Shown here piece after piece: positions 5,277-42,409 of a stretch of DNA of 64,000 bases. This stretch comes from a candidate division WWE3 bacterium UBA1379 (GTDB lineage Bacteria > Patescibacteriota > WWE3 > UBA101185 > UBA10185). Each line of letters begins with the position of its first letter. Position 1 is the stretch's first letter. Location of the stretch: assembly GCA_002305475.1 (NCBI GenBank), contig DBRB01000003.1:13360-77359 (forward strand). The letters run 5' to 3'. The notes below the pieces were generated by a model, which was given only the letters and a program-made list of their open reading frames with translations, searched no databases and was not told the DNA's origin. The translations under genes were made by a program, and so were the position numbers.

Positions 5277-6422
5277 ATGTCTAGTACTGCTCGACGGACA
5301 TCCGCTGCATCAAGAAGATCAAAAACGTACTCAAAAGTTTACAAAAGAACTTCCGTATCAAAAGCGTCAAAAAAAACCATAAGAAAAAGCAGAATATCGT
5401 CCCGTCCTAATCTAGGAAAATCAAAAATAGGTAAAACAGTAAAAAAGATTGCTGCAGTACTGGGTCTTTTTATAATATCGGCTTTATTTGTACTGGCAGT
5501 AGGTTTTTATAAGAATCTGACAAAGAATTTTGCTTCAGCCGATTCGGTAAATTCGTATTCTGTACAGACCCAGGATATCTATTCAGTACTATATATATCG
5601 GTCAGTGACCTAGATCAGGCAGACAGTCCCGACGGCATCCTGGATGTACATTCCATGAGTTTTGTGATTGTAGATAAAAACAATAAAAAACTGGTGAAAT
5701 ATGATATTGATCCGAATATAACTATTGATGTACCGGGGAAGTTCGGAGATGAACAGGTAACAAAAGTCCTACATCTGGGATCATTAAACGCCAAGGATCC
5801 ATTAGAGGGAGGAGTCAGACTGGCTTCCAGAAGTGTTGCTAGGATATTTGGGTATCCGGTAGATAAATACATTATTACGGATGAAAATGTGAAAAATACT
5901 TATGATAGATTATTCAATCATGGCGTAGTGACTCTGGAGCTGGGTAAACCGGGCGGAAAGAAAACGGATTTCACTCTGGAAGAATTTTATAGCCTAGTTT
6001 CTTTTATAAGAACACTACCGTCTGATCGCTTTATTTTTAAATCATTTAATTATGATTACCTACAAAATCCGGATAAGATAAATACGGAAATCAGGGATGT
6101 AACTTTTGACAGCCAGATATCCCTGGAAAAAAAGAGTATATCGGTGTTGAATGGATCGGGACTATCGGGAGTAGCAGGCTATACTTCCAGACAGATTGAA
6201 AATATGGGGGGCAGGGTTGTAACGGTGGGAAATGCTGATAAATCATATGATAAAAGTATTCTTGTTGTGGATGACAAAGAATCAGAGACTGCCAGAAAAC
6301 TTGCCCATAGCTTTGATTTCAAACAGGTAATGACAAGGGAGGAATTCGGTCTGCAGGAAAATGAGGTAGGACGTTCCGATATTGTATTGATTATCGGACT
6401 TGACATTCAGGATATGTTGTAA
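5277..6422 (+). CDS. LytR-CpsA-Psr (LCP) family cell-envelope phosphotransferase with a LytR_C-type C-terminal domain.
   Basis: A basic N-terminus plus a single TM anchor. The LCP core block is VLYISVSD...DVHSMSFVIVDKNNKKLVKYDIDPNITIDVPG...DKYIITDENV. The C-terminus is ISVLNGSGLSGVAGYTSRQIENMGGRVV. Confidence 0.6.
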   Translation: MSSTARRTSAASRRSKTYSKVYKRTSVSKASKKTIRKSRISSRPNLGKSKIGKTVKKIAAVLGLFIISALFVLAVGFYKNLTKNFASADSVNSYSVQTQDIYSVLYISVSDLDQADSPDGILDVHSMSFVIVDKNNKKLVKYDIDPNITIDVPGKFGDEQVTKVLHLGSLNAKDPLEGGVRLASRSVARIFGYPVDKYIITDENVKNTYDRLFNHGVVTLELGKPGGKKTDFTLEEFYSLVSFIRTLPSDRFIFKSFNYDYLQNPDKINTEIRDVTFDSQISLEKKSISVLNGSGLSGVAGYTSRQIENMGGRVVTVGNADKSYDKSILVVDDKESETARKLAHSFDFKQVMTREEFGLQENEVGRSDIVLIIGLDIQDML

Positions 6423-6453
6423 TAACATAATGACATTGTCTCTCTCCTTTCTT

Positions 6454-6489
6454 CACCCCGGTCCCAAATTAGGGCCGGGGTTGTGTTTT
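6454..6489 (+). terminator. Rho-independent terminator after the LCP gene.
   Basis: A GC-rich hairpin CCCCGGTCCC-AAATTA-GGGCCGGGG directly followed by TTGTGTTTTTC. Confidence 0.7.
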
Positions 6490-6495
6490 TCTTAT

Positions 6496-9060
6496 ATGTC
6501 TATATACATCGGTATACCTTTATTACTGATCGGAATTCTAATAGCAATTATTTACAGGCGGATAAAAACCCAGCCACTGGATTTAGGTGCGGTCAGCAAT
6601 ACCCCTTTTGAAGTCCTTGAAATAAAAATGCCAAAGACACTGGAAGCTGAAAGGGAATCCCAGATGTCAGCTTTGTCGGCAGAAAATATGTTTGCCTCAC
6701 TGCACGGACTGTTAAAAGAGGATGCTACTGAACAGGAGCATTTTTCCTTTGAAATGGTGGCGGACGGAGCAAACGGTATCAAGTTTTATGTGGCAGTACC
6801 TCAAAATGTTTTAAAGTTTGTGGAAAGTCAGATCTATGCCCAGTACCCGTCCTGTCAGATCAGGGTAGTTGAGGATTACACTACTAGTGCTGATTTCAAA
6901 CAGGGGGAGTATGAAATATCCTCCGTAACATTAACAAAAGACTATTTCTTTCCTATAAAAACATTCAGAGATTTTGAAATAGACCCTCTATCGGCAATCA
7001 CTTCCGCTTTTTCCGGAGTATCGTTTGATGAACAGGTTTGGTTGCAGTTTCTAATAAAACCTATTCCTGACGGATGGCAGAAACCCGGATACAATTATGT
7101 GGATTTTGTGAGAACCGGAGTGGATAAAACAAATAAACCCGGTATTCTGGGAGAAGTTGGTAAAATATTCTTTAAGGAATTTGTTGATATCGGACTAGGA
7201 ATTCTTACCGGATTGTTTACACCGCATCCTCCTGAACCAAGACCCGGTGCAAAAGATGCTCCAAAGCCTGCTCTTGCACCAAGGCTCACTTCTGCCCAGG
7301 ATATGGAAGTAAAAGCGATAGAGAATAAGCTGTCTAAAATGGGATTTGAGGTGGAGATCAGGATACTATCATACAGCAAGGATAGAGCGAGACTGGAGAG
7401 TAATCTTAGATCTCTTACCGCGTCCCTAAAACAATATTCCACCAGCACTTTAAACGGATTTGTAACAAGTCGTGAAACGCACCGTACTGGAAGTCTGGAA
7501 AACTTTATAAAACGTACTTTCTGTGGAGATAAATCCTTCATTTTAAACGTGGAAGAAGTAGCTTCCGTCTACCATTTACCTACCGGACAGGTAGAAACTC
7601 CGAATATTCAATGGATTTATTCCAAAAAGTCCGAACCCCCCGCAGGGCTTCCCACACAGGATTGTTGCTATATCGGGGAAACCATATACAGAAGCCAGAG
7701 AGTAAAATTCGGTATCGCCAATAATGACGACAGACTCAGACATATGTATCTGATTGGTAAGTCAGGTACAGGAAAATCAACACTATTTGAAACCATGATC
7801 AGTCAGGATATTCAGAACGGTTTTGGAGTCGGTGTATTGGACCCCCACGGAGAAACAATAGATAAAGTAATGGAATATATACCGGATAATCGGCTTGATG
7901 ATGTGATATATTTTGACCCTTCAGATACGGAAAGACCTGTCGGTCTTAATCTTCTGGAAATGACCGATCCTTCACAGAAAAACCTCATGGCATCTGGATT
8001 GGTAGCAGCAATCAAACACCACTTTGATTACTCGTGGGGTCCTCGACTGGAATATCTTTTAAACTATAGTATCTTAACCTTGCTTGAAGTTCCCGGAACA
8101 ACTATGCTTAGCATTACCAGGCTCCTGGAGGATGATAATTATCGAAAATTCATTCTTCATTTTGTAAAAGATCCGGTAACCATCCGCTTCTGGGAAACGG
8201 AATTTAAGAATATGAAGAGTAATCAAAAAATGATCACGGAAGCGGTAGCTCCTATTCAGAACAAAGTTAACAGATTTTTGGCTTCAACTACCATCAGAAA
8301 TATTCTGGGACAGGCTAGGTCCACAATTGATATCTGGGATGCCATGAATAATGGGAAAATCCTGATGATGAATCTATCCAAAGGTAAAATAGGGGAGGAT
8401 AATGCAAATCTTTTGGGGGCACTCCTGGTATCCAGAATTCAGTTTATGGCATTACAAAGAGCAAAAATACCTCCTCAGGAAAGAAAACCGTTTTATCTTT
8501 ATGTAGATGAGTTCCAGAATTTTGCTACTGGTAGCTTTGAAAGTATTCTGTCTGAGTCCAGAAAATACGGCCTTGGTTTATACCTGACTCATCAATACAC
8601 TGCACAGCTGCCGGAGGATCTGATGAGGGCGGTATTCGGGAATGTGGGTACTATTGCCACCTACGCTTTAGGAGCTCCAGATGCAAAGCTTCTGGAAAAT
8701 GAGTTTTCTCCTTATTTCAACCAGGAGGATATTATTTCCCTGGAAAGGTTTAATATCTATATCAAACTAATGATGAATGGAATGACGTCATTACCTTTCT
8801 CTGCTAGAATACTCTTACCTTGGGTTGAGGGTGAAGCGGTGGTTCAAAAGACTCCCTACCATCAGAAAGTTATTGAAATGAGCAGGCATAAATTCGGTGC
8901 AGATCGTGAAATGGTTGAAAGTAAAATCAATAAGTGGGTAGAAACACCGTTTGATAAAGGAATAGCTATAGCTATAGAAAACCGGGAAAAGGCAGCAAAA
9001 GCGGCACAGGAAAAAAGCCTACCTCAGGTAGCCCAATCGGTTGAAGAAATTAAAAATTAG
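6496..9060 (+). CDS. Membrane-anchored FtsK/HerA/VirB4/VirD4-superfamily P-loop ATPase (AAA_10/DUF87-like). It has no neighbouring secretion genes.
   Basis: The track ORF begins with TTG at 6400 and overlaps the upstream terminator. The first ATG after the terminator (6496, MSIYIGIPLLLIGILIAIIY) opens with a TM helix. The Walker A motif YLIGKSGTGKST is followed by DPHGE, then the Walker B motif FYLYVDEFQNF. The downstream RKYGLGLYLTHQYTAQL block is typical of HerA and T4SS coupling-protein ATPases. Confidence 0.65.
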   Translation: MSIYIGIPLLLIGILIAIIYRRIKTQPLDLGAVSNTPFEVLEIKMPKTLEAERESQMSALSAENMFASLHGLLKEDATEQEHFSFEMVADGANGIKFYVAVPQNVLKFVESQIYAQYPSCQIRVVEDYTTSADFKQGEYEISSVTLTKDYFFPIKTFRDFEIDPLSAITSAFSGVSFDEQVWLQFLIKPIPDGWQKPGYNYVDFVRTGVDKTNKPGILGEVGKIFFKEFVDIGLGILTGLFTPHPPEPRPGAKDAPKPALAPRLTSAQDMEVKAIENKLSKMGFEVEIRILSYSKDRARLESNLRSLTASLKQYSTSTLNGFVTSRETHRTGSLENFIKRTFCGDKSFILNVEEVASVYHLPTGQVETPNIQWIYSKKSEPPAGLPTQDCCYIGETIYRSQRVKFGIANNDDRLRHMYLIGKSGTGKSTLFETMISQDIQNGFGVGVLDPHGETIDKVMEYIPDNRLDDVIYFDPSDTERPVGLNLLEMTDPSQKNLMASGLVAAIKHHFDYSWGPRLEYLLNYSILTLLEVPGTTMLSITRLLEDDNYRKFILHFVKDPVTIRFWETEFKNMKSNQKMITEAVAPIQNKVNRFLASTTIRNILGQARSTIDIWDAMNNGKILMMNLSKGKIGEDNANLLGALLVSRIQFMALQRAKIPPQERKPFYLYVDEFQNFATGSFESILSESRKYGLGLYLTHQYTAQLPEDLMRAVFGNVGTIATYALGAPDAKLLENEFSPYFNQEDIISLERFNIYIKLMMNGMTSLPFSARILLPWVEGEAVVQKTPYHQKVIEMSRHKFGADREMVESKINKWVETPFDKGIAIAIENREKAAKAAQEKSLPQVAQSVEEIKN

Positions 9061-9112: not shown

Positions 9113-9865
9113 ATGTCCGAAAATGTTAAAAAACTATACAAAATTTTAGACAACCTTGAGCGTGACGTTCGCTATGCAAAAAAGCTGTTGATAGAGGTGC
9201 AGCAGGAGACAAGGAAAGATTACTCCCAGGTACCCGGTGACGAAGGTGTTTATGACGGATTTCATCTTGTAAAGACAGATGGGACAAAGATTGAAGTTCC
9301 GGCTAACTATGCTGCAAAATCGCGTCTGGTATGGGGTGACACTTTGAAAATGATTGAAGAAGAAGGAAAGAAACTTTTTAAACAGATAGCAAAATCTCCC
9401 AGGAAAAGGGTTGAAGGTGTACTTAATAAAAAAGAAGGCAAGTGGTACGTATTGGCGGAAACAGGATCATACAGGGTCAGTGATGTTGCAGTAGATTTCA
9501 ATAATCTTCAGATAGGGGATAAAGTCACCATATTAATCCCAGAAAACAATTTAAATGCTCCATTTGCCACTCTGGATGTCAAACCGGCAGTCATTAAGAA
9601 AGTGGCACCTGAAATAACTACGGATAGTAAACCAATCGTCAAAAAGGTAGAAGTACCTGTTGGAGCAAAAACACCCGCAAAAGAACCGGTGAAAAAGGTT
9701 GTTCCGGCTAAGAGCCGCAGCACATCGGCTTCAAGCTCAGATAAACCCGTATTAAAAGGTTCAAGAAAGCCGGCAGTTAAAAAAGCTGATACCCAAACTG
9801 AGTCTGCGGAATCCAAGGAATATGTCAATCAGATAGGTGTATTAGGGGATGACGATTTAAGATAA
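9113..9865 (+). CDS. Hypothetical protein with a Lys/Pro/Ala-rich, histone-H1-like low-complexity C-terminal tail.
   Basis: A strong RBS (AAAAAGGAGG) sits upstream. The C-terminal 80 aa are KKV/PAK/KPAVKK repeats. Confidence 0.55.
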   Translation: MSENVKKLYKILDNLERDVRYAKKLLIEVQQETRKDYSQVPGDEGVYDGFHLVKTDGTKIEVPANYAAKSRLVWGDTLKMIEEEGKKLFKQIAKSPRKRVEGVLNKKEGKWYVLAETGSYRVSDVAVDFNNLQIGDKVTILIPENNLNAPFATLDVKPAVIKKVAPEITTDSKPIVKKVEVPVGAKTPAKEPVKKVVPAKSRSTSASSSDKPVLKGSRKPAVKKADTQTESAESKEYVNQIGVLGDDDLR

Positions 9866-11518: not shown

Positions 11519-12001
11519 ATGATTGTTTTAGGCATTGATCCTGGTACCGCACGTACCGGATACGCTATCGTACAACTTAAAAGCAAACCGATATTAATAG
11601 AGTCAGACACCATCATAACTCCTGCAGGGATTGATATGCCAAAGAGGTTGAAAATGCTGTATCGTGAGATGACTGATCTGGTAAAAAAGCACTCTCCGGA
11701 TGTAATGGTAATTGAAAGATTGTTTTTTAATACAAATGCAAAAACAGCTATTGCAGTAGGGCAGTCAAGAGGTGTAACCATGCTTGTTGCAGCAAATAAG
11801 AATTTGATGGTGGCGGAATATACCGCACTGGAAGCAAAGCTGGCATTAACCGGTTACGGACGTTCAGATAAAAAACAAGTGCAGGAAGCCGTAAAAAAGT
11901 ATCTGGGTCTGGATAAAATAGTTAAGTCTGATGATGCCAATGATGCAGTTGCCATAGCTCTGTGTTATCTTAAAAAGGAGTTCGCAGAGATATTTGTATG
12001 A
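11519..12001 (+). CDS. ruvC: Holliday-junction resolvase RuvC.
   Basis: MIVLGIDPGTARTGYAIV at the N-terminus, the conserved catalytic acidic residues, and the DANDAVAIALCY motif at the C-terminus. Confidence 0.9.
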   Translation: MIVLGIDPGTARTGYAIVQLKSKPILIESDTIITPAGIDMPKRLKMLYREMTDLVKKHSPDVMVIERLFFNTNAKTAIAVGQSRGVTMLVAANKNLMVAEYTALEAKLALTGYGRSDKKQVQEAVKKYLGLDKIVKSDDANDAVAIALCYLKKEFAEIFV

Positions 12002-12780
12002 TCTTACTAGATAAGAAATTCAGATATTTTATTCATTCTGTTGTCGTACTGCTATCGATATATCTGTTTTCTAAGGATTATGATTTTAAATATGCAATCC
12101 TAGCGATGGTGATTGCAGTTATGGGTACGGTCTTTGTTCATTATCCTAATGTAAATTGGAAGAATTTTTTTCTGAGTAATATTCTGCCTGCTCATCTGGT
12201 ATCTGGCACACTTCTTTCTCTTTATTATTTTCCAAACTTAGCATTGCCGGTAGAAATATTATTTATGTTATGTGCTGGAGCAGGATTCTATCTAGTATCT
12301 CTGGTTAATAATGTTTTTCTGGTGGTAGAGGATAAAAAAGAAATCATTCCTTTATATAGAGTAGCAGTAACTTGGAGTCAGATAATATTTGTTACGGTAT
12401 CTATTCCATTTTTTGCAGGAGTATTTAAATTACCGACAAATTCAATATTCCAGAATCTGATATCAACATTTTCAGCGATATCTTTCTCAACATATCTTAT
12501 TTGGATTTTGCATTTTGATCCCGATGTTAAGAAGGCTAGGGGATTGGAAATTGTAATATTGAATCTATTGAACGGTTTTTTTGTCTTTACCTCCGGCATA
12601 AGCTCTTCTTTTATCCCTGTTGAATCATTCCTAAGAGCTCTTTTTGTTTCATCAGTACTGATGTTTGGGATTAGCTACATCAGCTCACACTTAAAAAATA
12701 GTGTAACAAAACGCTCTCTTACGGAATCCATTATAATTACATTCGTATTTTTTGCGTTATTGTTGATATTTCAGGTATAA
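11998..12780 (+). CDS. Polytopic integral membrane protein, hypothetical.
   Basis: 260 aa with about 8 hydrophobic segments. Its start overlaps the ruvC stop (ATGA). Confidence 0.5.
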   Translation: MILLDKKFRYFIHSVVVLLSIYLFSKDYDFKYAILAMVIAVMGTVFVHYPNVNWKNFFLSNILPAHLVSGTLLSLYYFPNLALPVEILFMLCAGAGFYLVSLVNNVFLVVEDKKEIIPLYRVAVTWSQIIFVTVSIPFFAGVFKLPTNSIFQNLISTFSAISFSTYLIWILHFDPDVKKARGLEIVILNLLNGFFVFTSGISSSFIPVESFLRALFVSSVLMFGISYISSHLKNSVTKRSLTESIIITFVFFALLLIFQV

Positions 12781-12862
12781 AACGACATCAAATAGGCTAG
12801 GGAAGAGGGGAGTAGGGGCTCCGGACCGTGGGGTTGGGGATAAAACCTTAAATTTATTATCA

Positions 12863-13021
12863 TACTATAGGATAGACTGCTAACCTATAGTATAATTGTC
12901 ATATATTTTTTGTAGGATTGTCATAGTATTTAAATTAATTAATACGATGTCGCTCTAACAATTCTTTAACATTATACCCTGTAGTATTGTCATACTTTTC
13001 TCTGTAGGGTTGTCATACTTT
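12863..13021. repeat. Iteron-like repeat cluster inside an 870-bp AT-rich non-coding island. It holds a 10-bp inverted repeat and three or four direct copies of TGTAG-N3-TTGTCATA.
   Basis: The inverted repeat is ATACTATAGG (12863-12872) / CCTATAGTAT (12884-12893). There is a TTGTCATA core at 12896. Direct repeats TGTAGgATTGTCATAgTAT (12911-12929), TGTAGtATTGTCATAcTTT (12979-12997) and TGTAGgGTTGTCATAcTTT (13003-13021) follow. Confidence 0.6.
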
Positions 13022-13652
13022 CCCGAGATAGAGGAATGTGGATATCTTTTTACGCATCAGAAGCCTTCTACGGTTAAAAACGATACTGTGACAGCCTGAG
13101 AGAATTATTCAATTATAAGAAATATATTCCGCAATAAAATAAAAAATATATAAATAAATAATCTATTAATAGGAAATGATCGTGTAATATTTCTATTTAT
13201 TCTCCCCTCATAAATGATATATCTCTTTTTATATCCGGTAAACATGCCTTTGGCGGTCCTATTAGGATTCCCGGGATACAATGTCGTTAAACCGACATTA
13301 TACGAAGTCTCAGATCTCGGACTGTATCGATCCCCTCCGCTGTTTTGTATTCAAAAAAATAACTACCTATTTAAAAAATAAAATAAGAAAAAAACAATCG
13401 AAAATATTTTATTGATTTTATTTACCTATTATTAATTACCTTTTAATTTTTTATTTACTGAAAAATTATTGCTCATTTCCCTAACAATTTTCCCGCAAAT
13501 ATTTATCCTGCCATTTACACAAACTTCTCTCCCCTACTATTCCTTACTGCTACAAGGATTACCTATTATTACTAATGATTAATTTAATTATTAATTTATA
13601 ATTAAATAGAAACTAGTAGACAGCCATAATATATAAAGAAAAAGGAGAGGTT

Positions 13653-13958
13653 ATGGAAGATGAGATGCTGACTCGGCTGGCTCTAAAGACAGGTCTATGT
13701 GTCAGGATAAGAGGACTGGGCAAGAAAGGCGTTGTAATTCTTCCTGTGGAGCGTGTAGTTATAGAGGAGGGTGTAGATGGAGGTAAAGCTGTATATCTGG
13801 TATTAACACCTCATCTCTTACTGGAAAATCCCGTTATTGTTAATTATAGAGATGTAATTAACTGGGTGAACAAACATTGTGAAGCAAATATGAATTGGGC
13901 GGTTTTAGGTGAAGATGGAAGAGTGCATGTGGATTGTTTTAAAACAATTTCGAAATAA
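13653..13958 (+). CDS. Hypothetical 101-aa protein.
   Basis: An RBS AAAAAGGAGAGG 4 nt upstream of the ATG. No recognisable motif. Confidence 0.5.
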   Translation: MEDEMLTRLALKTGLCVRIRGLGKKGVVILPVERVVIEEGVDGGKAVYLVLTPHLLLENPVIVNYRDVINWVNKHCEANMNWAVLGEDGRVHVDCFKTISK

Positions 13959-14143
13959 AAAATGGCTGAAATATTTTTTTACCAAGCCGGTTAGAACATC
14001 CGATGTTTCTGACCGGCAGTTTTTTTATGGTAATATTAATTTAGTGAGTATTTACTGTAGGTATGAATCGGTTTTTCGGCGTGGTTGAGCCAATATCCCG
14101 AATCAGGCCCCAGAATGCCCCAGAATCAATTTTTATTTTTAAG

Positions 14144-15109
14144 ATGAGTAAAGTATCGTCTAAAACAAGTATAAGTGATCTGATTATCCGTTATCTTGAG
14201 CATTGTGAGGTAGAAAAGAACCTCTCACAGAATACCATCAAGATGTATCATTTTTATCTGAATGATTTTGCCGACTGGAGTTCAAAATTTTTAGACAAGG
14301 AATATATTATTTCATCTGACATTGATAGCGAGTTGATTAAAAAATACCGATTAGATTTAAATCGTAGAATCAGTTCAAAGTCCAATGAGGAGTTTAAACG
14401 TTCAACGCAAAAAACATTTCTGGTGGCCCTCAGAGCCTTTCTGAAGTATCTGATTGTAGAAGAAGGTTTGCAGGTACTACCTCCCGATCAGATTATTCTG
14501 GGAAAGTCTGAGGATAGGATACCTAAGGTATTGGAAGAAGATCAATTAAAGAAGTTGTTGGAAGTACAGGACCTAAATAAAAAATCTGGTCTTAGAGATA
14601 AGGCTATCCTTGTTACCTTATTTAGTACCGGTCTTAGGGTCAGTGAGCTGGTGAAACTGAATATTGAGGATATCAACCTGGAAACCGGAGAATTTCCGGT
14701 GATCGGAAAGGGACGTAAGGTCAGAACCGTCTATTTAAGTCCTGCAGCCATAGATTGTATACGTCGTTATTTAAATACGCGTCACGACCCGTTTAAACCG
14801 CTCTTTCTTAGGTATAGTGGCAAACATATGGCTCCCCAGGACTTTGAAGGAGAGTCATTAAGATTAACAGTTAGAAGTGTACAAAGACTGGTAAAAAAGT
14901 ATGTACTGCGTGCCGGTATAGCTGTTGATGCCACACCACATACTCTCCGACATACATATGCAACAGACCTTTTAAGAAACGGTGCCGATCTCAGATCCGT
15001 TCAGGAGCTTTTGGGTCATTCCAATGTCTCCACTACTCAGATATATACTCATGTTACCAATAAACAGCTCAAAGAAATCCATAAGAAATTCCACAAGGAT
15101 ATTGAATAA
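14144..15109 (+). CDS. XerC/XerD-type tyrosine site-specific recombinase. The track ORF starts at 14063; the start is probably the Met at 14144.
   Basis: A core-binding N-domain, then the catalytic block GLRVSELVKLNIEDIN...HTLRHTYATDLLRNGADLRSVQELLGHSNVSTTQIYTHV. This carries the R..HxxR...Y signature. Confidence 0.85.
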   Translation: MSKVSSKTSISDLIIRYLEHCEVEKNLSQNTIKMYHFYLNDFADWSSKFLDKEYIISSDIDSELIKKYRLDLNRRISSKSNEEFKRSTQKTFLVALRAFLKYLIVEEGLQVLPPDQIILGKSEDRIPKVLEEDQLKKLLEVQDLNKKSGLRDKAILVTLFSTGLRVSELVKLNIEDINLETGEFPVIGKGRKVRTVYLSPAAIDCIRRYLNTRHDPFKPLFLRYSGKHMAPQDFEGESLRLTVRSVQRLVKKYVLRAGIAVDATPHTLRHTYATDLLRNGADLRSVQELLGHSNVSTTQIYTHVTNKQLKEIHKKFHKDIE

Positions 15110-22612: not shown

Positions 22613-22770
22613 GTCATACCTCCTTTTTTCCTTACGGAAATACTCTAAATAAAATAAATAAAATTCTCGGACTTTATGCCCGAGGTAATTTCCCAAAACT
22701 GGAAAATATTAGCAGTGTCATTATACATTAGGATGGCTGAATATCAACATAAAACAAGATGGAAAGAAAA

Positions 22771-22795
22771 AACCCGGCTTTAAAACCGGGTTTTT
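22771..22795. terminator. Bidirectional terminator-like hairpin.
   Basis: AACCCGG-CTTTAAAA-CCGGGTT flanked by an A-run on one side and a T-run on the other. It lies downstream of the minus gene 22834..23088. Confidence 0.6.
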
Positions 22796-22833
22796 CTCAT
22801 ATATGCAATATATCTATTATTTCATTTTGCTTT

Positions 22834-23088
22834 TTAGAAAGCTCTGGACAGTGCTCTACCAATCAGTATAAGCACTACTGCTCCGATCAGGGCTACTATA
22901 ATGCTGTATATATTAAAACCAGTAACCCCCGGCTGACCAAAAAAATCCATCAGCAGTCCTCCGGTTAAAGCTCCCAGCGTACCTAGGATGATATCTCCTA
23001 AGAGTCCCTGCTGCGAATTAGTTTTCATCAGTACGGAGGCCAGCCAGCCCACTAAGGCTCCGAAAATTAAGAATACTATGATGTTCAT
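22834..23088 (-). CDS. GlsB/YeaQ/YmgE-family small membrane protein.
   Basis: An 84-aa protein with two to three glycine-rich TM helices: MNIIVFLIFGALVGWLASVLM...GDIILGTLGALTGGLLMDFFG. Confidence 0.6.
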   Translation of the reverse strand: MNIIVFLIFGALVGWLASVLMKTNSQQGLLGDIILGTLGALTGGLLMDFFGQPGVTGFNIYSIIVALIGAVVLILIGRALSRAF

Positions 23089-23240
23089 TCACATCACCTC
23101 CTTCGCCTTATATCCATCCTATGAAAACCTATTTAAATACCAATTAGAGGATTGTAATTGAACTGTAAGGTCAGCGGATTTAATAAACTACATATAGATA
23201 ACTATTGAAATATTAATCATGATTAAGTATATTCAATCGT

Positions 23241-23450
23241 ATGGATATAGAATTGGTGTTGAAGGTTCGAAAAATAATTCATGATATTAATTCCCCCCTT
23301 ACTTCCGTAATTGGGTATTCTCAGTTGCTTGAACGAAAACTTCCTGAAGGAAAAGAAAAAGAGTGGTCGCGGAAACTTCATGAAGATTCACTAAGATTAA
23401 AAGATTTAATGCTTGAGTTATCTGATACTGTACCCAAACCCTCTGATTGA
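23241..23450 (+). CDS. Orphan 69-aa HisKA (dimerisation/phospho-acceptor) domain protein with no ATPase domain.
   Basis: The H-box HDINSPLTSVIGYSQLL has the conserved His, and a second helix follows. It overlaps the 3' end of the convergent OmpR regulator by 33 bp. Confidence 0.4.
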   Translation: MDIELVLKVRKIIHDINSPLTSVIGYSQLLERKLPEGKEKEWSRKLHEDSLRLKDLMLELSDTVPKPSD

Positions 23451-34957: not shown

Positions 34958-36721
34958 ATGTTTAAAGTAGATACAAATACAAGAGGAATTGAAGAGGTAC
35001 TTTATGATAAGAAACTTATTACCTCCGATCAGTTATCCGCAATAAAATTTGAGCATGTAAATACCGGAAAAAGCATTGAATCTATTATTAAAGAGAGGGC
35101 TTATGTCAGTAATGATGATTTTGTAAAAGCATTGGGAGAGGCTTATGGTTTTGATTATGCTCCCCTTTCAGAAGAACAGGTCGATTCGAATCTTTTGGAC
35201 CTCATTCCATTAAGCTCAGCTAAAAAATACAATGTAGTGCCATTTAATTTAAATGGTAATAATCTGGCTGTGGCGATGGTTGATCCGCTTGATTTGCAGA
35301 CCATTGAATTTATTGAAAGAAAAACCGGGTATAAAGTAGTCCCCTTTATTACTACAGAAAAAAATATCGAACGAATTCTTGAAGAGCAGAAAGGTAAAGC
35401 AATCGGCGAAGAAATCAGTGCTGCAATGGAAGAAATCAGTCAGACCACTTTAAAACTTGATGAAACCTCAGGTGAACTTACTGATGCCACTATCCGTGAT
35501 GCTCCTATTGCCAGAATTGTGGGAATGATTCTGGAGACAGCGGTAAAAACTGGAGCATCTGATGTGCATTTGGAGCCGGGTGAAGATGTATCCAGACTCA
35601 GATATAGAGTAGACGGTATTCTGGAAGAAAAAAGAAAACTTCCTAAGGAGATGCATGATTCCATAGTTGCCCGTATTAAAATTCTGGGTAAGATGAAGAT
35701 TGATGAAAAGCGTTTACCTTTGGACGGTCGATTTAAAGTACAGGTTGGAAATACTTCAACCGATCTTAGAATTTCAACTCTTCCTACCATATATGGGGAA
35801 AAAGTTGTGATCAGATTATTAAAAGAAGAAGGAGCGGCCTTCTCATTTAAAGATCTAGGATTAAGGGGTCTATCTTTAAAACGTCTGGAGGAAGCAATTC
35901 TAAAACCAAACGGTATGGTGCTGGTAACCGGACCTACCGGATCTGGTAAGACTGTTACACTGGCTTCCGCATTAAGTAAATTAAATACCATCAGAGTGAA
36001 TATTGTTACTCTTGAAGATCCGGTGGAAATTCGTGTTCCGGGTGTAAATCAGGTGCAAATCAATCCTCAGGCAGGTTTAACATTTGCCACAGGGCTTAGA
36101 GCTTTTCTTAGACAAGATCCTAACATCATCATGGTTGGTGAGGTCAGAGACGGTGAAACTGCTGAGCTGGCTATTCATGCGGCTTTAACAGGTCACCTGG
36201 TTTTGTCCACTTTGCATACCAACTCTGCATCAGGTGCTTTACCTCGACTTTTAGATATGGGTGCGGAAAACTTTTTGCTGGCTTCCACGGTTAATGTGGT
36301 GGTTGCCCAAAGACTTGTGCGTAAAGTATGCAGCAACTGTGCTGAAGAATACGATCCTCCGGAGGAAGTTGTACAGGATATCAAAAGAGTGGTATCAGGT
36401 ATATCCAATGCCATGCTGGCACAGAATAAAGATCCGGATATTATGAAAGCCGTGAAGAAATCCCAGGAAAACAAAATCACTTTGAAAAAAGGCACGGGTT
36501 GTGACAAGTGTGCCAATACCGGATACAAAGGACGACTTGGAATATTTGAAGTATTAAATATATCCAATGAGATTTCACATATGACGCTAGAAAATGCACC
36601 CGCAGCAAAAATAGAAGCTATTGCTGTTGAGCAGGGCATGATAACATTAATGCAGGATGGTTATCTGAGAGTGTTGGAAGGCGCAACAACACTTGAAGAA
36701 GTACTTAGAGTCGCCAAATAA
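34958..36721 (+). CDS. pilB: Type IV pilus assembly ATPase PilB (GspE family).
   Basis: An N-terminal T2SSE_N domain, Walker A VTGPTGSGKTVT, Asp/His boxes, Walker B IIMVGEVRD, and the tetracysteine motif CSNCAEEY...CDKCANTGYKGR. Confidence 0.9.
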   Translation: MFKVDTNTRGIEEVLYDKKLITSDQLSAIKFEHVNTGKSIESIIKERAYVSNDDFVKALGEAYGFDYAPLSEEQVDSNLLDLIPLSSAKKYNVVPFNLNGNNLAVAMVDPLDLQTIEFIERKTGYKVVPFITTEKNIERILEEQKGKAIGEEISAAMEEISQTTLKLDETSGELTDATIRDAPIARIVGMILETAVKTGASDVHLEPGEDVSRLRYRVDGILEEKRKLPKEMHDSIVARIKILGKMKIDEKRLPLDGRFKVQVGNTSTDLRISTLPTIYGEKVVIRLLKEEGAAFSFKDLGLRGLSLKRLEEAILKPNGMVLVTGPTGSGKTVTLASALSKLNTIRVNIVTLEDPVEIRVPGVNQVQINPQAGLTFATGLRAFLRQDPNIIMVGEVRDGETAELAIHAALTGHLVLSTLHTNSASGALPRLLDMGAENFLLASTVNVVVAQRLVRKVCSNCAEEYDPPEEVVQDIKRVVSGISNAMLAQNKDPDIMKAVKKSQENKITLKKGTGCDKCANTGYKGRLGIFEVLNISNEISHMTLENAPAAKIEAIAVEQGMITLMQDGYLRVLEGATTLEEVLRVAK

Positions 36722-36732
36722 TTACTGCCTAT

Positions 36733-37821
36733 ATGAGATTAGATGCAACACAAATATTGGAGCAAGTTGTAAGTAATAATGCATCAGATTTGCATTTATG
36801 CGTTGGAGTTTCTCCGCATATCAGGGTGAATACAGTACTCAGCCCTCTTGCTGATTATCCCCCATCGACAACGGAAGATATTGAATATTTCCTCAGTCAG
36901 GTTCTTGATGAAGATCAAAAATCCTTGTATGAAATTAATCGTGAGTTGGATTTTTCCATTGCCTTAGGTAATAAAGCACGTTTCAGAGTAAATGCCTTTT
37001 ATCAAAGAGGATACCCCTCGGTTGCCCTGCGTTCCATTCCCATGACAATACCTACTTTGGAGGACCTTAATTTACCGGAGATACTCGGAAAACTTTGTGA
37101 TCTTAAGCAGGGGTTGATATTGGTTGTCGGACCTACCGGGCATGGTAAATCCACAACCATTGCATCTATGATAGATAAAATCAACAACAGCAGGGCGGAA
37201 CATATCATAACAGTGGAAGATCCTATAGAATATGTGTATACAAATAAATCATCATTTATTGAACAAAGAGAAATGTATATTGATACTCATGATTGGGATA
37301 TTGCATTAAAATCAGTTCTTAGACAGGATCCTAACATCGTGATGATCGGAGAAATGCGGGATATTGAAACAATGACAGCCGCACTTCAGGTTTCTGAAAC
37401 CGGTCACCTGGTTTTTGCAACACTTCATACAAACTCAGCTGCCCAAACCGTAGAAAGAATTATTAACTCATTTCCGGAAGGATCAAAAGCCCAGGTACGA
37501 CTTCAGCTTGCCCAGGTATTAGAAGTGATCATTTCACAAAGACTACTCCCCTCCTCTACCAAAGGTATGGTTCCTGCGGTAGAAATAATGCTGGCAACCG
37601 ATGCAATCCGTAATCTGATTCGGGAAAACAAGACGCACATGATTGATAATACAATCCGAACCAGCATGTCGGTGGGTATGCAGCCGATTGAACGAGGTCT
37701 GGCACTTCTGGTGGAAAAAGGCTGGGTGGATGTATCTGATGCAATGAAATATGCCATTCTTCCGGATGAATTGGCAAGACTTTTAAAAAATTCAAAGTAT
37801 GTGAAACCTGAAAAACGCTAA
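36733..37821 (+). CDS. pilT: Type IV pilus retraction ATPase PilT.
   Basis: Walker A VVGPTGHGKSTT and the block IVMIGEMRDIETMTAALQVSETGHLVFATLHTNSAAQTVERII; a 362-aa protein typical of PilT. Confidence 0.9.
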   Translation: MRLDATQILEQVVSNNASDLHLCVGVSPHIRVNTVLSPLADYPPSTTEDIEYFLSQVLDEDQKSLYEINRELDFSIALGNKARFRVNAFYQRGYPSVALRSIPMTIPTLEDLNLPEILGKLCDLKQGLILVVGPTGHGKSTTIASMIDKINNSRAEHIITVEDPIEYVYTNKSSFIEQREMYIDTHDWDIALKSVLRQDPNIVMIGEMRDIETMTAALQVSETGHLVFATLHTNSAAQTVERIINSFPEGSKAQVRLQLAQVLEVIISQRLLPSSTKGMVPAVEIMLATDAIRNLIRENKTHMIDNTIRTSMSVGMQPIERGLALLVEKGWVDVSDAMKYAILPDELARLLKNSKYVKPEKR

Positions 37822-37825
37822 GCCT

Positions 37826-39028
37826 ATGCCTTTGTTTAAGTATACAGCAACAGATACCAACGGGAATAGAAAAGAAGGAACCGTAGACGCGCGTTCTGAA
37901 GAACTAGCTGTATCTCTTCTAAAATCTCAGGGCTTTTTTGTCATAAATGTAGCAGAACAGAAAAGCGGTATTTTAGGATCAATTTCGGCAGTCAGAGGAA
38001 TTTCCGAAAGTGAAATAGTGGCTTTTACCAGACAGTTTTCCACCATGATTTCAGCTGGTCTTCCGATATCAAGAGCATTAGATGTTTTGGCGGAACAGTC
38101 TCCAAATAAAAATTTCAGGATTATGATGGGAAGTATATTGCGAGATGTTGAGGGTGGTTCTCCTTTATCCGCATCAATGGGACGTTATCCTAAGTATTTC
38201 AACCCTACCTACCAGGCATTAGTCAGAGCCGGAGAATCCTCAGGTAAACTTGATGAAATTCTTAAACGATTAGCTGCTACTATGGAAGCAAATCGGGAGC
38301 TTAAAGCTAAGTTCAAAACCGCCATGATCTATCCCACTATCGTCATGATTGCGATGGTAGGTGTGTTTTTCCTTTTGATGTTTACCGTTGTTCCAAAGTT
38401 GGCGGAAATGTATGAAAGCTTAAACATTGATCTTCCTCTGCCTACAAAAATAATGATCGCAATTTCCGATTTCATGGTTCACCGTTTTTATATTATGGCT
38501 TTGGTAATTGCAGGAGTAGTGTATTTAGTCAAAAGTTTTTTGAAGACGGAAACTGGCCGTGGATATATATCACGTTTAATGTTTTCCCTACCGGTTTTCG
38601 GACGTTTAAACAGATTAAGAGATATCACTCAGTTTTCCAGAACCTTAGGTCTTTTAATAGGTTCTGCGATTCCTATAGTTGAAGCATTAAAGATTGTATC
38701 TAATGTGGTAGCCAATGATTATTACAAAGATGCTGCTTTGTCCGCAGCAACAGTTGTGGAAAAAGGAGGAGCTTTATCCGAATATTTTAAACGTAATAAA
38801 GAATTCCCTCCTCTTCTGGGACAGATGGTAGGTGTGGGAGAAGAAACCGGTCAGCTGGATGAAGTATTGGAAAAAGTTGCAAATTATTTCAACAGTGAAG
38901 TAGACCATGCAATTGAAGGTTTATCAGCTTCACTTGAACCATTTATCCTTATCTTTTTGGGGAGTATGGTAGGTCTTCTTATTGTTTCGATTATTACGCC
39001 TATTTATAAGATTACAACATCTATTTGA
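37826..39028 (+). CDS. pilC: Type IV pilus inner-membrane platform protein PilC (GspF family).
   Basis: Two GspF repeats (FTRQFSTMISAGLPISRALDVL... and FSRTLGLLIGSAIPIVEALKIV...) and three TM segments. Confidence 0.9.
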   Translation: MPLFKYTATDTNGNRKEGTVDARSEELAVSLLKSQGFFVINVAEQKSGILGSISAVRGISESEIVAFTRQFSTMISAGLPISRALDVLAEQSPNKNFRIMMGSILRDVEGGSPLSASMGRYPKYFNPTYQALVRAGESSGKLDEILKRLAATMEANRELKAKFKTAMIYPTIVMIAMVGVFFLLMFTVVPKLAEMYESLNIDLPLPTKIMIAISDFMVHRFYIMALVIAGVVYLVKSFLKTETGRGYISRLMFSLPVFGRLNRLRDITQFSRTLGLLIGSAIPIVEALKIVSNVVANDYYKDAALSAATVVEKGGALSEYFKRNKEFPPLLGQMVGVGEETGQLDEVLEKVANYFNSEVDHAIEGLSASLEPFILIFLGSMVGLLIVSIITPIYKITTSI

Positions 39029-39074
39029 TGTCATCGGTGTGCAAAAGTATATTAAAGCACCTATAATATTTAAT

Positions 39075-39599
39075 ATGAACTCGAAAAACTTCCTCAGAAG
39101 AAGAAATAAATATACAGTCGGATTCACACTTCTTGAATTAATATTAGTTATGGCAGTTATTTCTATATTATCCGGATTGTTGATTGCGGTTATCAATCCC
39201 AGGGAAATAATGGCGAAAGGCCGTGACGCTCGCAGAATGACCAATTTGGATGTTATTCATAAAGCAATATCACTGGGACTTACGGAAGAAGAAATCAATT
39301 TGGTGGCAACCGGATCGTGCTCAGACTGTTCAAGTGCTACAGGTTCTCAGGCAGTGGACGGTACAGGATGGGTAAAATTTACTATCCCGACAGGTAAAAC
39401 AGGACTATCAAGATACATTCCGGCACTACCTCTTGATCCCAAAAACTCGGAGGGTAATATTTATACCTTTGGTTCTACTGCAACATCTTATGAGTTGAAT
39501 GCCATTCTGGAGGCAGAGGATAATGCAAGTATTATGAGTACGGACGGCGGAGATGATGTAAATGTGTACGAGGTAGGCACTTCTTTGAGTATCTTATGA
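39075..39599 (+). CDS. Type IV pilin/prepilin with a class III signal. The start is refined to MNSKNF; the track ORF begins at 38982.
   Basis: MNSKNFLRRRNKYTVG|FTLLELILVMAVISILSGLLIAVI has Gly at -1, Phe at +1 and Glu at +5. There is a C-terminal Cys pair (CSDCSSA). Confidence 0.8.
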   Translation: MNSKNFLRRRNKYTVGFTLLELILVMAVISILSGLLIAVINPREIMAKGRDARRMTNLDVIHKAISLGLTEEEINLVATGSCSDCSSATGSQAVDGTGWVKFTIPTGKTGLSRYIPALPLDPKNSEGNIYTFGSTATSYELNAILEAEDNASIMSTDGGDDVNVYEVGTSLSIL

Positions 39600-40477
39600 T
39601 CTTCATTTTTTACTATATTCTTTTGTTTATTCTGGGGTTATTTGTCGGATCTTTTTTAAATGTTATAGCAGACCGTTCCATCGTTGATGAAACTTTTATT
39701 AAAGGACGTTCCAGATGCGATAACTGTAAAAAAACATTATCGGCAAAGGATCTTATCCCGGTATTCTCATATCTGTTTTTGCAAGGAAAGTGCAGATATT
39801 GCAAGATAAAGTTATCAATCTGGTATCCGCTGGCGGAAATAATGACAGGAATTTTATTTACAGGATCGGCTTATATTTCACAGGTATTTACGGATTTTTC
39901 AATTCATTCTCTTTTTCTGTTCATATTTCTGATTACGGTATCAAGTTTTTATATGATACTGTTTCTCAGTGATGCCAAATACAAACTGATTCCTTCCAAT
40001 GTAATATATACATCAATCATTGCGGTATTTATATTTTTAATAATCATCCAGGGGTATACCCTATTTTCCACATACAGAAGTTTGAAAATTGATGAGTTTG
40101 GACAATACTTAATAAAAGCAGGGTATTTTAATGCTCAACTGATTGAAAGTGCAAAGTATTTTGGAATATTGCTGGCTAGTTCTTTAGGCTTGGGTGCTTT
40201 TTTTTGGTTTCTGGTATGGATAACCAGAGGAAAAGGTATGGGAGATGGAGATATAACACTTGCTGTACTTATCGGGCTTGTGAATGGTTTTCCTAATAAT
40301 ATTTTGGCAATATTTTTAGGATTTTTATTCGGAGCAGTGTTTTCCCTTCCCCTGGTTTTATTTAAAACAAAAGGTTTAAAAGATACCATTGCATTCGGCC
40401 CGTTTTTGTTAATCGGCAGTGCTGTAGCGTTTATCTGGGGATCGAGAATTCTTGATTGGTATCTACAGTATCTTTAG
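39596..40477 (+). CDS. pilD: Prepilin peptidase / N-methyltransferase PilD (A24 family).
   Basis: An N-terminal Zn-binding motif CDNCKKTL...CRYCKIK, catalytic Asp motifs including GMGDGDITL, and multiple TM helices. Confidence 0.9.
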   Translation: MIFIFYYILLFILGLFVGSFLNVIADRSIVDETFIKGRSRCDNCKKTLSAKDLIPVFSYLFLQGKCRYCKIKLSIWYPLAEIMTGILFTGSAYISQVFTDFSIHSLFLFIFLITVSSFYMILFLSDAKYKLIPSNVIYTSIIAVFIFLIIIQGYTLFSTYRSLKIDEFGQYLIKAGYFNAQLIESAKYFGILLASSLGLGAFFWFLVWITRGKGMGDGDITLAVLIGLVNGFPNNILAIFLGFLFGAVFSLPLVLFKTKGLKDTIAFGPFLLIGSAVAFIWGSRILDWYLQYL

Positions 40478-40600
40478 TAACGTCCTTGACAGTGTATCTG
40501 AACTGAATCATACTTAATGTATAAAAGTTATTACCTGCCCATGGAAAATATAAATCAAATAGGAAAATTGAATATAAAGAAGAAAGGGGGTGTAGAGAAT

Positions 40601-41047
40601 ATGAGAAATCGAAAAGGTTTTACACTTATTGAACTTTTAATCGTTATCGTTATTATCGGTATCTTAGCAGGAGTAGTACTTGCGGTTATGAACCCTGCTG
40701 AGCAAAGAAGAAAAGCAGCAGTTAGCGTTATGCGAGCAAATTTAGACAAGATGTGTTTAGCGATGAGCGCATGTGCATCAACTGTTACTAGTGCAGCAAG
40801 TTGTGATACAGCAGCTGAAATTGGTATCACTGTTGATGGTTCAGGTAATCCTACTATGAATGGTGTCCCTGTAGGGGCAGCTTACACAATAGGCGCAAGC
40901 GGTCAGGAGCTTACTGCAACAGCAACAGGAACGAATTTGGGAACAGGAGGTACGGTTGATTGTATATATACATGTACACACGACGTTGATACTGGTGAAT
41001 CCACACCTATTACGGCAGACAATCCCGCAAACTGCTTTAACCTTTAA
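40601..41047 (+). CDS. Type IV pilin, a candidate major pilin. The start is refined to MRNRKG.
   Basis: MRNRKG|[20 protein letters not shown] with a GGG-rich RBS upstream. The C-terminus is Cys-containing ([13 protein letters not shown]...CFNL). Confidence 0.75.
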
Positions 41048-42397: not shown

Positions 42398-42409
42398 GGA
42401 TTATTACAG

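Follow-up and report, generated by a model that had tools for sequence, protein, structure and literature searches.

A dif-like core beside a DnaA box and an iteron array: a candidate Xer locus conserved in WWE3 bacteria, with a core shared by phages

Introduction

Xer systems which operate with one recombinase, and in which the recombinase gene lies beside its site, are established in two groups of bacteria, XerS/difSL in streptococci and lactococci and XerH/difH in epsilon-proteobacteria. In both, a lone enzyme of the XerC/D family is encoded next to a near-palindromic core of the dif type, and gene and site travel as a module. The locus presented here is most similar to these modules. It comes from candidate division WWE3, a lineage of the candidate phyla radiation (CPR), and was found in a stretch of 64,000 nucleotides of the bacterium UBA1379 (GenBank assembly GCA_002305475.1, contig DBRB01000003.1, positions 13,360 to 77,359 of the forward strand), hereafter called the window. 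A Logan contig of 90 kb contains this DNA as well. The element in question is an intergenic island (12781-13652) between the gene of a 260-aa membrane protein, mem260, and that of a XerC/D-type recombinase. It contains a 28-bp dif-like core, a set of direct repeats (iterons), and a DnaA box.

An earlier note on this DNA, made by reading the letters alone, had drawn attention to the island and offered three explanations: a dif-like or att recombination site with arm-type repeats, an element resembling a replication origin, or the scar of an integrated element. We have followed up these proposals by comparison with relatives, metagenomes and phages. Judging by its sequence, the locus would work most like the one-recombinase Xer modules, and its structure agrees with that of known dif sites. 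The picture which we favor as a whole, at not quite an even chance, is that of a Xer/dif locus situated where the chromosome arms meet and accompanied by an array which binds DnaA and an iteron-binding protein. The dif/Xer pair itself is known. What is new is its combination, at a fixed distance, with iterons and a DnaA box, a combination which a whole class of the CPR has kept and whose dif core also occurs in phages. The literature searched contained no description of dif in the CPR.

The dif-like core and its recombinase

The core is located at 13281-13308 (+ strand) and reads ATGTCGTTAAA-CCGACA-TTATACGAAGT. Two inverted arms of 11 bp enclose a centre of 6 bp. This 11-6-11 layout falls within the range of dif sites, i.e., 28-31 bp with inverted arms of about 11 bp and a centre of 6-8 bp. 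In the lineage consensus, ATGTCGTTAAA-CATACA-TTATACGACGT, 8 of 11 positions agree between the inverted arms; the window has a different centre and one substitution in the right arm, and there 7 of 11 agree. Within the 64 kb the core is unique, with 0 copies expected by chance, and each chromosomal locus holds one copy. Among 30 WWE3 loci it was found in 28, always in + orientation and with xer roughly 300-950 bp downstream. No other part of the gap comes near it in conservation.

Invariance is confined to the arms, and the centre varies. A metagenome scan returned 120 loci, 86 of them WWE3 chromosomal (centre CATACA) and 34 in other contexts. Taking the 28 WWE3 loci and the 86 metagenome loci together, the centres are CATACA, CCGACA, TCGACA, CCTACA and TATACA, and phages add further ones. 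Conserved arms around a free centre are a hallmark of dif sites, and precisely this pattern should result when the arms are recognized by a recombinase and the strand exchange takes place in the centre. The reverse complement of the core, ACGTCGTATAA-TGTATG, resembles the XerC arm and centre of proteobacterial dif, ..GCGCATAA-TGTATA. With E. coli dif the site thus shares the 28-bp 11-6-11 layout as well as this arm, the left one, and centre. Unlike in E. coli dif, the WWE3 arms mirror each other, which suits a single recombinase. Other CPR lineages possess a related 11-6-11 site, ATGTCG[CT]ACAA-N6-TT[TG]T[AG]CGACAT, at the same locus or 0.3-5 kb from Xer. In substance the proposal of a dif-like or att site is supported, but at another place. 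The inverted repeat of the note, ATACTATAGG/CCTATAGTAT, is not the dif site; the best dif candidate is the palindrome at 13281-13308, which the note had missed.

The recombinase gene (14144-15109, + strand) encodes a SAM-like N-terminal domain and a catalytic domain (Pfam Phage_integrase, 9e-43) and no others. The protein scores 251 bits with the XerD model and 248 bits with the XerC model, both under the equivalog cut-offs, and 130 bits with the XerS model. Its closest match in the PDB is E. coli XerD (2e-42); XerH is a distant match only. Across 30 WWE3 species the sequence is 70-84% identical, and a single copy was found in the window and in each locus examined. Because it reaches about 250 bits with the XerC and XerD models and has E. 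coli XerD as its best solved relative, we regard it as a housekeeping enzyme and not as the integrase of a mobile element.

As the arms are near-palindromic, like those of other one-recombinase systems, we infer that this Xer binds both of them. It would then exchange strands across the centre and turn chromosome dimers into monomers. Together with the phage and small-element copies described below, these features make it quite probable that the 28-mer is a target of Xer. The differences from XerS/difSL and XerH/difH are nonetheless distinct. The WWE3 core is not immediately adjacent to the gene but about 300-950 bp away, the arm sequences differ, and the enzyme scores XerC/XerD-like. Further, the WWE3 module includes two AT tracts and an additional conserved array of ACTATAGG boxes, iterons and a DnaA box.

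The iteron array and the DnaA box

Upstream of the core the array constitutes a second conserved module, composed of ACTATAGG boxes, iterons of identical orientation two helical turns apart, and a DnaA box one repeat-length further on. It begins with the inverted repeat which had been reported as 10 bp long. The repeat exists and is longer, since arms of 17 nt (12859-12875 and 12880-12896), 88% complementary, are separated by 4 nt. We designate this module, ATCATACTATAGGATAG-ACTG-CTAACCTATAGTATAAT (12859-12896), the p-box. An alignment of 17 loci yields a conserved core (T)CA-w-mCTATAGG-N5-AGTGCTAA followed by a second CTATAG. CTATAGG is present in 23 of 28 loci at a median of 365 bp before the core.

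Four iterons, copies of TGTAnGnTTGTCATA, are placed on the + strand at 12889-12903 (with 2 mismatches), 12911-12925, 12980-12994 and 13003-13017. They form two pairs with a 54-bp AT-rich spacer between them. The three or four direct repeats within 130 bp announced in the note are consequently four, spanning 12889-13017. A search for the repeat elsewhere, as the note had suggested, was run in the window and gave just two other matches with 2 mismatches each. As 2.5 matches are expected per window, four copies within 130 bp are not a matter of chance. At the same place the loci of 27 related WWE3 species carry roughly 100 copies, all in the same orientation, with the consensus CTGTAnGwTTGTCATA. 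With at most one mismatch allowed, the octamer TTGTCATA is conserved to 90-100% per position in the copies of 28 loci. Usually a locus has 2-4 iterons, most often 3, with a spacing of mostly 23-25 bp. The left half of the iteron resembles the ACTATAGG box.

Other identities of the iterons were considered. As weak DnaA boxes they were rejected by eye (at least 5 mismatches in 9 positions), and as Xer half-sites they are unconvincing, with only TGTC in common with the arms. Nor do they look like the arm-type sites of an integrase suggested earlier, because Xer possesses SAM-like and catalytic domains only and because the phage copies of the core, discussed below, come without iterons.

The DnaA box is at 13037-13045 on the - strand (ATATCCACA; + strand TGTGGATAT) and has one mismatch. 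Most relatives have the consensus box TGTGGATAA (- strand TTATCCACA), the exact complement of the DnaA-box consensus, and TGTGGAT is found in 27 of 28 loci. The box is positioned 24-28 bp after the last iteron (mode 26). Its distance to the core has a median of 217 bp and is mostly 204-230 bp in 74 non-redundant loci. It is also present in other CPR lineages (L033, L037, L299), and in deeper ones it recurs beside the core without these iterons and even with the core inverted. Conservation, fixed distance and recurrence in deep lineages indicate that the box is apparently selected at the DNA level and linked to the core. The alternative of a micro-ORF (open reading frame; NTG-TGG-ATA-A, coding for 'MWIT...' peptides of 5-13 aa behind GGAG) was rejected. 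The Ile codon is always ATA and conservation ends after four codons, so the constraint is on the DNA.

The array varies outside WWE3. In L299 and L308, from another CPR lineage, mem260, a G-rich motif, ACTATAGG boxes, DnaA box and core are all present, the TTGTCATA iterons are absent, and relative to the flanks the core is inverted. In place of the iterons, other short repeats, TTTTCAC[GA], are present in L033, L037 and L038.

What might the array do? A sequence-specific protein together with DnaA would build a fixed nucleoprotein block beside dif. Such a block could halt replication forks at dif, or transcription arriving from the long upstream operon. Alternatively, the array could be accessory DNA which governs Xer synapsis in the manner of the plasmid sites cer and psi. 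In these, conserved DNA to which proteins bind flanks the Xer core on one side, at a distance that is roughly fixed, and in WWE3 a similar binding is predicted. At cer and psi the accessory DNA (about 180 bp) is directly next to the core and is bound by PepA together with ArgR or ArcA, the latter being a response regulator that binds direct repeats. The conserved WWE3 sites, by contrast, are 190-420 bp away from the core, and one of them is a DnaA box. We propose a role as nucleoprotein block or as accessory DNA tentatively, and consider it somewhat below an even chance.

In model bacteria single conserved DnaA boxes serve as operators or roadblocks, e.g., at the guaB, nrd and dnaA promoters of E. 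coli. By analogy, the DnaA box and iterons might be operators in a gene-control region, for instance a roadblock for the mem260 operon or a cell-cycle-timed promoter in the AT tract before the core, directed toward xer. The array would then have no direct role in replication or Xer chemistry, and dif would possibly be situated mid-arm. The array indeed follows a long operon of the same direction and precedes xer, in some species, e.g., L005 and L004, a GC hairpin and a T-run follow the box, and the absence of a skew sign switch reported below fits a mid-arm location. Yet no convincing promoter emerged (13 promoter-like matches vs. 11.8 expected), Xer is 0.9-1.3 kb off, often with other ORFs in between, and converging polar motifs, also described below, would remain unexplained. 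Moreover, the almost constant 217-bp distance between box and core and their linkage across deep CPR lineages, even when the core is inverted, suggest joint action. Gene control as the whole explanation is therefore quite unlikely.

Conserved blocks of the island

The gap comprises 872 bp without an ORF of at least 60 aa. It is, as had been claimed, the longest inter-ORF gap of the window, the runner-up having 721 bp. Among WWE3 relatives its length is 675-1475 bp. The GC content is 0.31 compared to 0.38 for the window. The note had described about 600 bp of very AT-rich DNA. AT-rich DNA is there, but as two tracts with GC-normal DNA and the conserved palindrome between them. AT tract 1 (13101-13180, GC 0.14) separates the DnaA box from the core and is the second most AT-rich 80-bp stretch of the window. 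AT tract 2 (13351-13480), just 3' of the core, contains the most AT-rich one (13369-13448, GC 0.11). These two most meltable tracts of the region bracket the core. Most relatives have an AT-rich tract at the place of the first, and the position of the second is kept as well.

Three contigs, L003, L012 (460 kb) and L014, by their names short-read assemblies, terminate in or near AT tract 1, probably on account of assembly trouble in extremely AT-rich DNA. Around the core itself there is no striking accumulation of contig ends (10 of 106 within 200 bp).

In more than 70 WWE3 species the same blocks appear in the same order and orientation between mem260 and Xer. A G-rich motif is followed by one or two ACTATAGG boxes around AGTGCTAA, the iterons, and a G-rich spacer with the DnaA box. 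After 60-100 bp of ordinary DNA come AT tract 1, a C-rich motif and the 28-bp palindrome. Beyond it a C-rich motif and AT tract 2, a variable zone and a tandem GCCCTAGAAT motif lead up to xer. In the window the G-rich block occupies 12800-12843 (+ strand). It contains GGGGAGTAGGGG at 12807-12818 and, inside this, the octamer GAGTAGGG at 12810-12817, which resembles the FtsK-orienting polar sequences (KOPS) and the SpoIIIE recognition sequences (SRS). A DnaA-box-like sequence with one mismatch in the same block, TGGGGATAA (12835-12843), is not conserved; the block itself is at the same position in almost all relatives. The first C-rich motif, TTCTCCCCTC at 13200-13209 (GAGGGGAGAA on the - strand), precedes the core by about 80 bp and is conserved as TATTT..CTCCCCT according to flank alignment and block map. 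The second, CTCTCCCCTACTATT at 13527-13541 (AATAGTAGGGGAGAG on the - strand), is a mirror copy of the G-rich motif at 12807-12818, and C-rich motifs come after the core in most relatives.

Pairing is possible between the mirror motifs AGTAGGGG (12811-12818) and CCCCTACT (13532-13539), the p-box can form a hairpin, and at the core the + strand changes from purine-rich on the left to pyrimidine-rich on the right. One may thus think of one or two structured non-coding RNA genes in which G-rich and C-rich motifs pair and the repeats are protein-binding RNA motifs. In Rfam 15, however, the window had no match that reached a gathering score. For 12700-14250 there was none with E below 2, and no hit was counted even up to E 5. 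The conserved blocks are parted by spacers of varying length and sequence, AT tracts included. Further, conservation is highest in the DnaA box, a canonical motif of double-stranded DNA, and in the palindrome, which is of a recombinase type and common to phages. RNA genes are accordingly a very improbable explanation.

Just ahead of Xer a tandem motif, twice GCCCCAGAAT followed by CAAT and a T-run (14107-14130, + strand), ends 14 bp before the start codon. It recurs in L004, L005, L006, L007, L035, L037 and L038. WWE3 has kept it in the form GCCCTAGAATCGATTTT and other lineages of the CPR in the form GGCCTAGAATCG.ATCCT, and in L005 it is clearly non-coding. Its CCTAGAAT part is identical to the left arm of B. 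subtilis dif; the motif may be an operator or a half-site.

Gene order and the origin of the island

The gene order around the island is a HerA/TrwB-type ATPase resembling type IV coupling proteins, hyp250 (a conserved protein of 250 aa), a TPR protein (- strand), YebC, RuvC, mem260, the gap, Xer, RNase HII (- strand) and GyrA (- strand). It holds in WWE3 loci wherever the contig is long enough, with 27 relatives spanning the gap; on longer contigs the conserved order extends from DnaB to GyrB. The recombination and translocation genes RuvC, YebC and the HerA/TrwB-type ATPase are conservedly linked to the locus, and we count this in favor of a Xer/dif function.

This conservation bears on the third of the earlier explanations, the scar of an integrated element. 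At first sight iterons beside a tyrosine recombinase are plasmid-like, and an orphan ORF lies between core and xer, as if the entire island were the remnant of an integrated plasmid or phage with its origin iterons and its integrase. But about 30 species, with a protein identity of 70-84%, have locus and recombinase in synteny with core genes, and gene order and DNA blocks are conserved throughout the lineage. A comparison of synteny, undertaken for an insertion at 12.8-15.5 kb, found the segment in all relatives and no insertion; variable is solely the part between core and recombinase gene, 13309-14100. Neither the core nor its arms are duplicated in the window in the way of flanking att sites, and iterons and core occur nowhere else in it. 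A remnant is hence extremely improbable. RNA genes, an element scar and chance jointly account for a small residue of probability.

The small ORF which had been noted downstream together with the tyrosine recombinase is real (13653-13958, + strand, 101 aa). It has a good ribosome-binding site and is followed by a terminator-like hairpin (13986-14027). It found no tblastn match in any relative and only itself among 5.8 billion proteins. Other species-specific ORFs take its place in relatives, and it is outside the conserved element. The two 101-aa ORFs which flank Xer are not paralogues.

Since the repeats are conserved in relatives and recombinase-site evidence is at hand, the earlier finding stands.

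Terminus or origin

The octamer GAGTAGGG fits the family of guide motifs of FtsK and SpoIIIE (GGGNAGGG and GAGAAGGG). We scanned the window (1-64000) and an 8.7-kb rightward extension (L090) for G[AG]GNAGGG. In the window this motif occurs three times on the + strand and never on the - strand left of the core, and three times on the + and 12 times on the - strand right of it (e.g., 628, 6209 and 12810 on +; 17291, 29368, 40351, 44664 and 45441 on -). Within genes 14 copies point toward the core and 3 away from it, compared to 5.7 and 2.7 expected from synonymous-codon shuffles. In right-side genes on the + strand the motif favors the template strand (6 vs. 3). Of all 4096 hexamers two from the conserved G-rich motif rank 3rd and 8th for a consistent right-side strand bias. 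Relatives show an extreme polarity of G[AG]GNAGGG, with gene strand as a confounding factor. Converging KOPS-like motifs fit a dif site at which two chromosome arms meet, and in E. coli G-rich octamers of the GNGNAGGG type likewise point to the site from both sides.

Nucleotide composition is less straightforward. Raw GC skew changes its sign at the gap in 19 of 21 species, and the cumulative skew has a maximum near 15 kb, not a minimum. Because it tracks gene orientation, raw skew was set aside as evidence. Skew at four-fold sites was instead split into a gene-strand and a fixed-strand part and pooled over 74 loci. The gene-strand part is equal on both sides of the gap. The fixed-strand part amounts to r_GC +0.135 and r_AT -0.083 on the left and to r_GC +0.034 and r_AT -0.143 on the right; on the right side of the window r_AT is -0.077 (p = 0.004). 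The drop of r_GC from left to right goes in a terminus-like direction. A switch of sign does not occur at four-fold sites, which is evidence against a terminus or origin of the classical bidirectional kind. On either side of the island the + strand is rich in T (r_AT about -0.08 to -0.14), and in GC it is G-rich on the left and neutral on the right, where r_GC lies between -0.03 and +0.03.

With the query used, no dnaA was found in the window, in the right extension (together -13 to +60 kb) or in 81 Xer loci. In a relative the locus is at about 690 kb of a 925-kb contig, which is uninformative without the position of dnaA.

An unchanged sign, in the window as in the 74 loci, is what one expects if one strand is leading throughout. 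It leads to the conjecture that origin and terminus are side by side within about 500 bp. Iterons, DnaA box, GC-rich spacer and AT tracts would be the origin, and dif, 220 bp away, would mark the point to which the single fork comes back. The 0.8-0.9 Mb chromosomes of WWE3, and probably those of the related Microgenomates, would be copied in one direction, and Xer would resolve dimers at the finish. Many iteron plasmids replicate unidirectionally, and the architecture matches that of iteron origins. As in pSC101, P1, F, RK2, R6K and oriCII of Vibrio cholerae, direct repeats of 16-22 bp about two turns (~22 bp) apart, one DnaA box and AT-rich DNA are assembled within about 350 bp. Replication genes, i.e., DnaB, GyrA, GyrB, HolB and RNase HII, cluster around the locus.

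Precedents point in the same direction. For three complete genomes of Microgenomates, the sister group of WWE3 within the CPR, Kadnikov et al. (2020) reported a monotonic cumulative GC skew and proposed that origin and terminus are close together (PMC7143001). The unidirectional chromids of Pseudoalteromonas have dif2 at 4-27 kb from ori2 (PMC7858055). With these chromids and with the Microgenomates proposal (Ch65, Collierbacteria, Beckwithbacteria) the WWE3 locus shares the proximity of origin-like and dif elements and the lack of a skew sign switch. It differs from the chromids, which have a RepA gene and a wider separation, and from the Microgenomates proposal, for which no sequence elements were given.

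In the origin-unwinding pattern TTATCCACA is followed by a spacer of at most 16 bp, by NAN repeats (at least three DnaA-trios) and by AT-rich DNA (PMC8287927). Of 70 loci, 41 show such a succession of box, spacer and NAN runs on the side where it is predicted, the spacer being C-rich and 9-13 nt long. The NAN run has a mean of 3.34, a small excess over the 2.67 in shuffles, and the median on the other side is 1.

Several observations speak against an origin at this place. There is one conserved consensus DnaA box, and the window as a whole shows no enrichment (27 boxes vs. 22.8 expected). Canonical unwinding would require the main AT tract on the opposite side of the box; unlike in iteron origins it is beyond the DnaA box and not between box and iterons. 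The array is chromosomal and conserved at the level of a class, and no gene like rep or rctB is adjacent to it. The flanking conserved genes encode a membrane protein and Xer, Pfam and NCBIfam scans detected no Rep family, and the neighbors which were modelled are a membrane protein and an OB-fold protein. No dnaA was found in the stretches searched. The cumulative maximum and the higher r_GC on the left, falling across the gap, are not those of an origin-type skew switch. The KOPS-like motifs converge on the site instead of all running one way. Last, the window does not display an overall G/C disparity such as that of the genome Ch65. Side-by-side origin and terminus are for these reasons unlikely, yet a serious alternative. 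The origin-like element of the note is strengthened in some respects, by the consensus box 24-28 bp past the last iteron in more than 70 species and by the AT tracts, the most meltable of the window; the solitary box and the lack of a nearby dnaA and of an origin-type skew switch speak against it.

L049, a 12.9-kb Xer locus from another CPR genome, has a GC skew of -0.32 in every 1-kb window, a one-strand disparity as extreme as that of Microgenomates Ch65. Neither a dif-like palindrome nor a DnaA box adjoins its Xer.

Phages and small elements with the same core

The core is not restricted to chromosomes. A search of the viral collection IMG/VR with the exact arms returned 8 contigs, 7 of which bear the core in intergenic DNA (L082, L084-L089). 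Terminase genes were present on all of five contigs sampled and portal genes on some. The core adjoins the gene of the terminase small subunit in L085 and L088 and an ORF of the helix-turn-helix family HTH_17 in L087. One phage site equals the chromosomal site of another lineage, centre included. The phage copies come without iterons, and a scan of the viral collection for iteron pairs gave single chance matches only. In 4 of 7 phage copies ACTATARG, the ACTATAGG box, is located 50-100 nt 5' of the core. By tblastn with the Xer protein no recombinase of the Xer family was detected within about 5 kb of the phage sites; other integrase types were not systematically searched.

P1 circularises its terminally redundant DNA through lox-Cre. 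The phage sites suggest a comparable circularisation of terminally redundant DNA by the Xer of the host, or integration at dif. Generally, phages and small elements would borrow the host Xer at the core for integration, circularisation or the resolution of multimers. L221 (Ga0255346_1006175) contains three direct copies of the core at 4814, 8500 and 11808. They separate units of 3.3-3.7 kb which are 79-92% identical. Each site copy has TTGGACAT repeats upstream, and in two units an HTH_17 ORF of the excisionase type follows just after the preceding site copy. Pfam scans of 10 ORFs revealed no integrase. L221 looks like a tandem array of small elements that exploit Xer.

Such a lifestyle is familiar from integrative mobile elements exploiting Xer (IMEX), e.g., the CTX and TLC phages of Vibrio and the gonococcal island. 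Like these and like P1 lox-Cre, the carriers described here have a site of this kind, dif-like in the IMEX, and no detected gene for a Xer-family recombinase. Tandem arrays separated by sites (L221) and a small HTH protein encoded by the site are further traits shared with IMEX. Unlike IMEX, the carriers include tailed phages with the site next to terminase genes, and their integration into a WWE3 chromosome is a prediction. Two loci, L230 and L294, were considered as prophage junctions at dif and dropped, as their PHROG matches looked chromosomal.

Neighboring genes

The gene of mem260 (11998-12780, + strand) encodes a polytopic membrane protein. Of 30 loci from WWE3 relatives, 27 extend sufficiently far upstream, and in all of these it adjoins the island, as it does in other lineages of the CPR. 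No match was found in Pfam or NCBIfam. Homologues which bear a name or title all belong to Patescibacteria/WWE3; most matches are nameless. The AlphaFold model (mean predicted local distance difference test, pLDDT, 93) has 10 helices and no significant fold match in the PDB. The linkage of mem260 to DnaA box and dif-like core extends to other CPR lineages.

At 6400-9060 (+ strand) an ATPase of 886 aa is encoded. Its N terminus has a membrane helix, and it contains DUF8128 and a HerA/TrwB motor akin to coupling proteins. The ATPase is linked with RuvC, YebC, dif and Xer throughout WWE3. Whereas E. coli employs FtsK, no FtsK gene was seen in the window, and the HerA/TrwB-type ATPase is a candidate for the DNA translocase partner of Xer.

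Hyp250 (9113-9865, + strand) is mislabelled as ribosomal protein L7/L12 in some databases, and its named homologues are all from WWE3/Patescibacteria. The model shows a long N-terminal helix, two OB/cold-shock-like domains in tandem, and a basic, disordered tail rich in Lys, Pro and Ala. Foldseek relates it to the N-terminal domains of RNase II/R (E = 5e-4). By structure prediction neither mem260 nor hyp250 is an obvious candidate for the iteron-binding protein.

More distant parts of the window are mentioned for completeness. The second-longest gap (22697-23417) is 5' of a gene pair for an OmpR-type response regulator and a histidine kinase. A complete type IV pilus cluster (34958-47523; PilB, PilT, PilC, prepilin peptidase, several pilins, PilM and PilO) is the only long + strand block right of the island.

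Discussion

A Xer/dif locus with a DnaA- and iteron-binding array at the meeting point of the chromosome arms has to face a number of objections. Observed are the sequences, how they are conserved, ordered and spaced, the occurrence of the core in phages, and the composition statistics; binding, cleavage and all behavior in replication are predicted from these. We know of no precedent for a DnaA box and iterons beside dif, and the role ascribed to them is a guess. Known fork traps are two-sided, with opposed polar sites and a terminator protein, whereas the iterons are on one side of the core in one orientation; the neighbors show no match to the Tus or RTP families, and the iterons are unlike the E. 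coli Ter sequence. The sign of the fixed-strand skew is unchanged across the site where a classical terminus should flip it. The KOPS-like motif was chosen after the G-rich block had been seen, and its counts in the window are small. The uniqueness of the core applies to the 64-kb window. Finally, where phage copies stand beside genes of the terminase small subunit, they may have a packaging-related role.

The replication and segregation of CPR chromosomes are almost unstudied, although the CPR make up a large share of bacterial diversity. The comparisons presented here provide a map of cis-elements valid for an entire lineage, with a candidate dif core and its recombinase, and they show that a dif-like core is, unexpectedly, coupled to iterons and a DnaA box. 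The common core ties uncultured phages and small elements to CPR hosts. It possibly also opens a way to genetic tools, i.e., dif-bearing vectors that rely on the host Xer, and the locus offers itself as a fixed point when assemblies are to be oriented or growth rates estimated from coverage.

Whether some CPR chromosomes replicate unidirectionally becomes a question that can be answered at a named locus. If origin and terminus truly lay side by side, this would supply a physical locus for an idea that has so far been derived from GC skew alone (PMC7143001). Should the two coincide in WWE3, the locus would be far more than a variant of dif/Xer.

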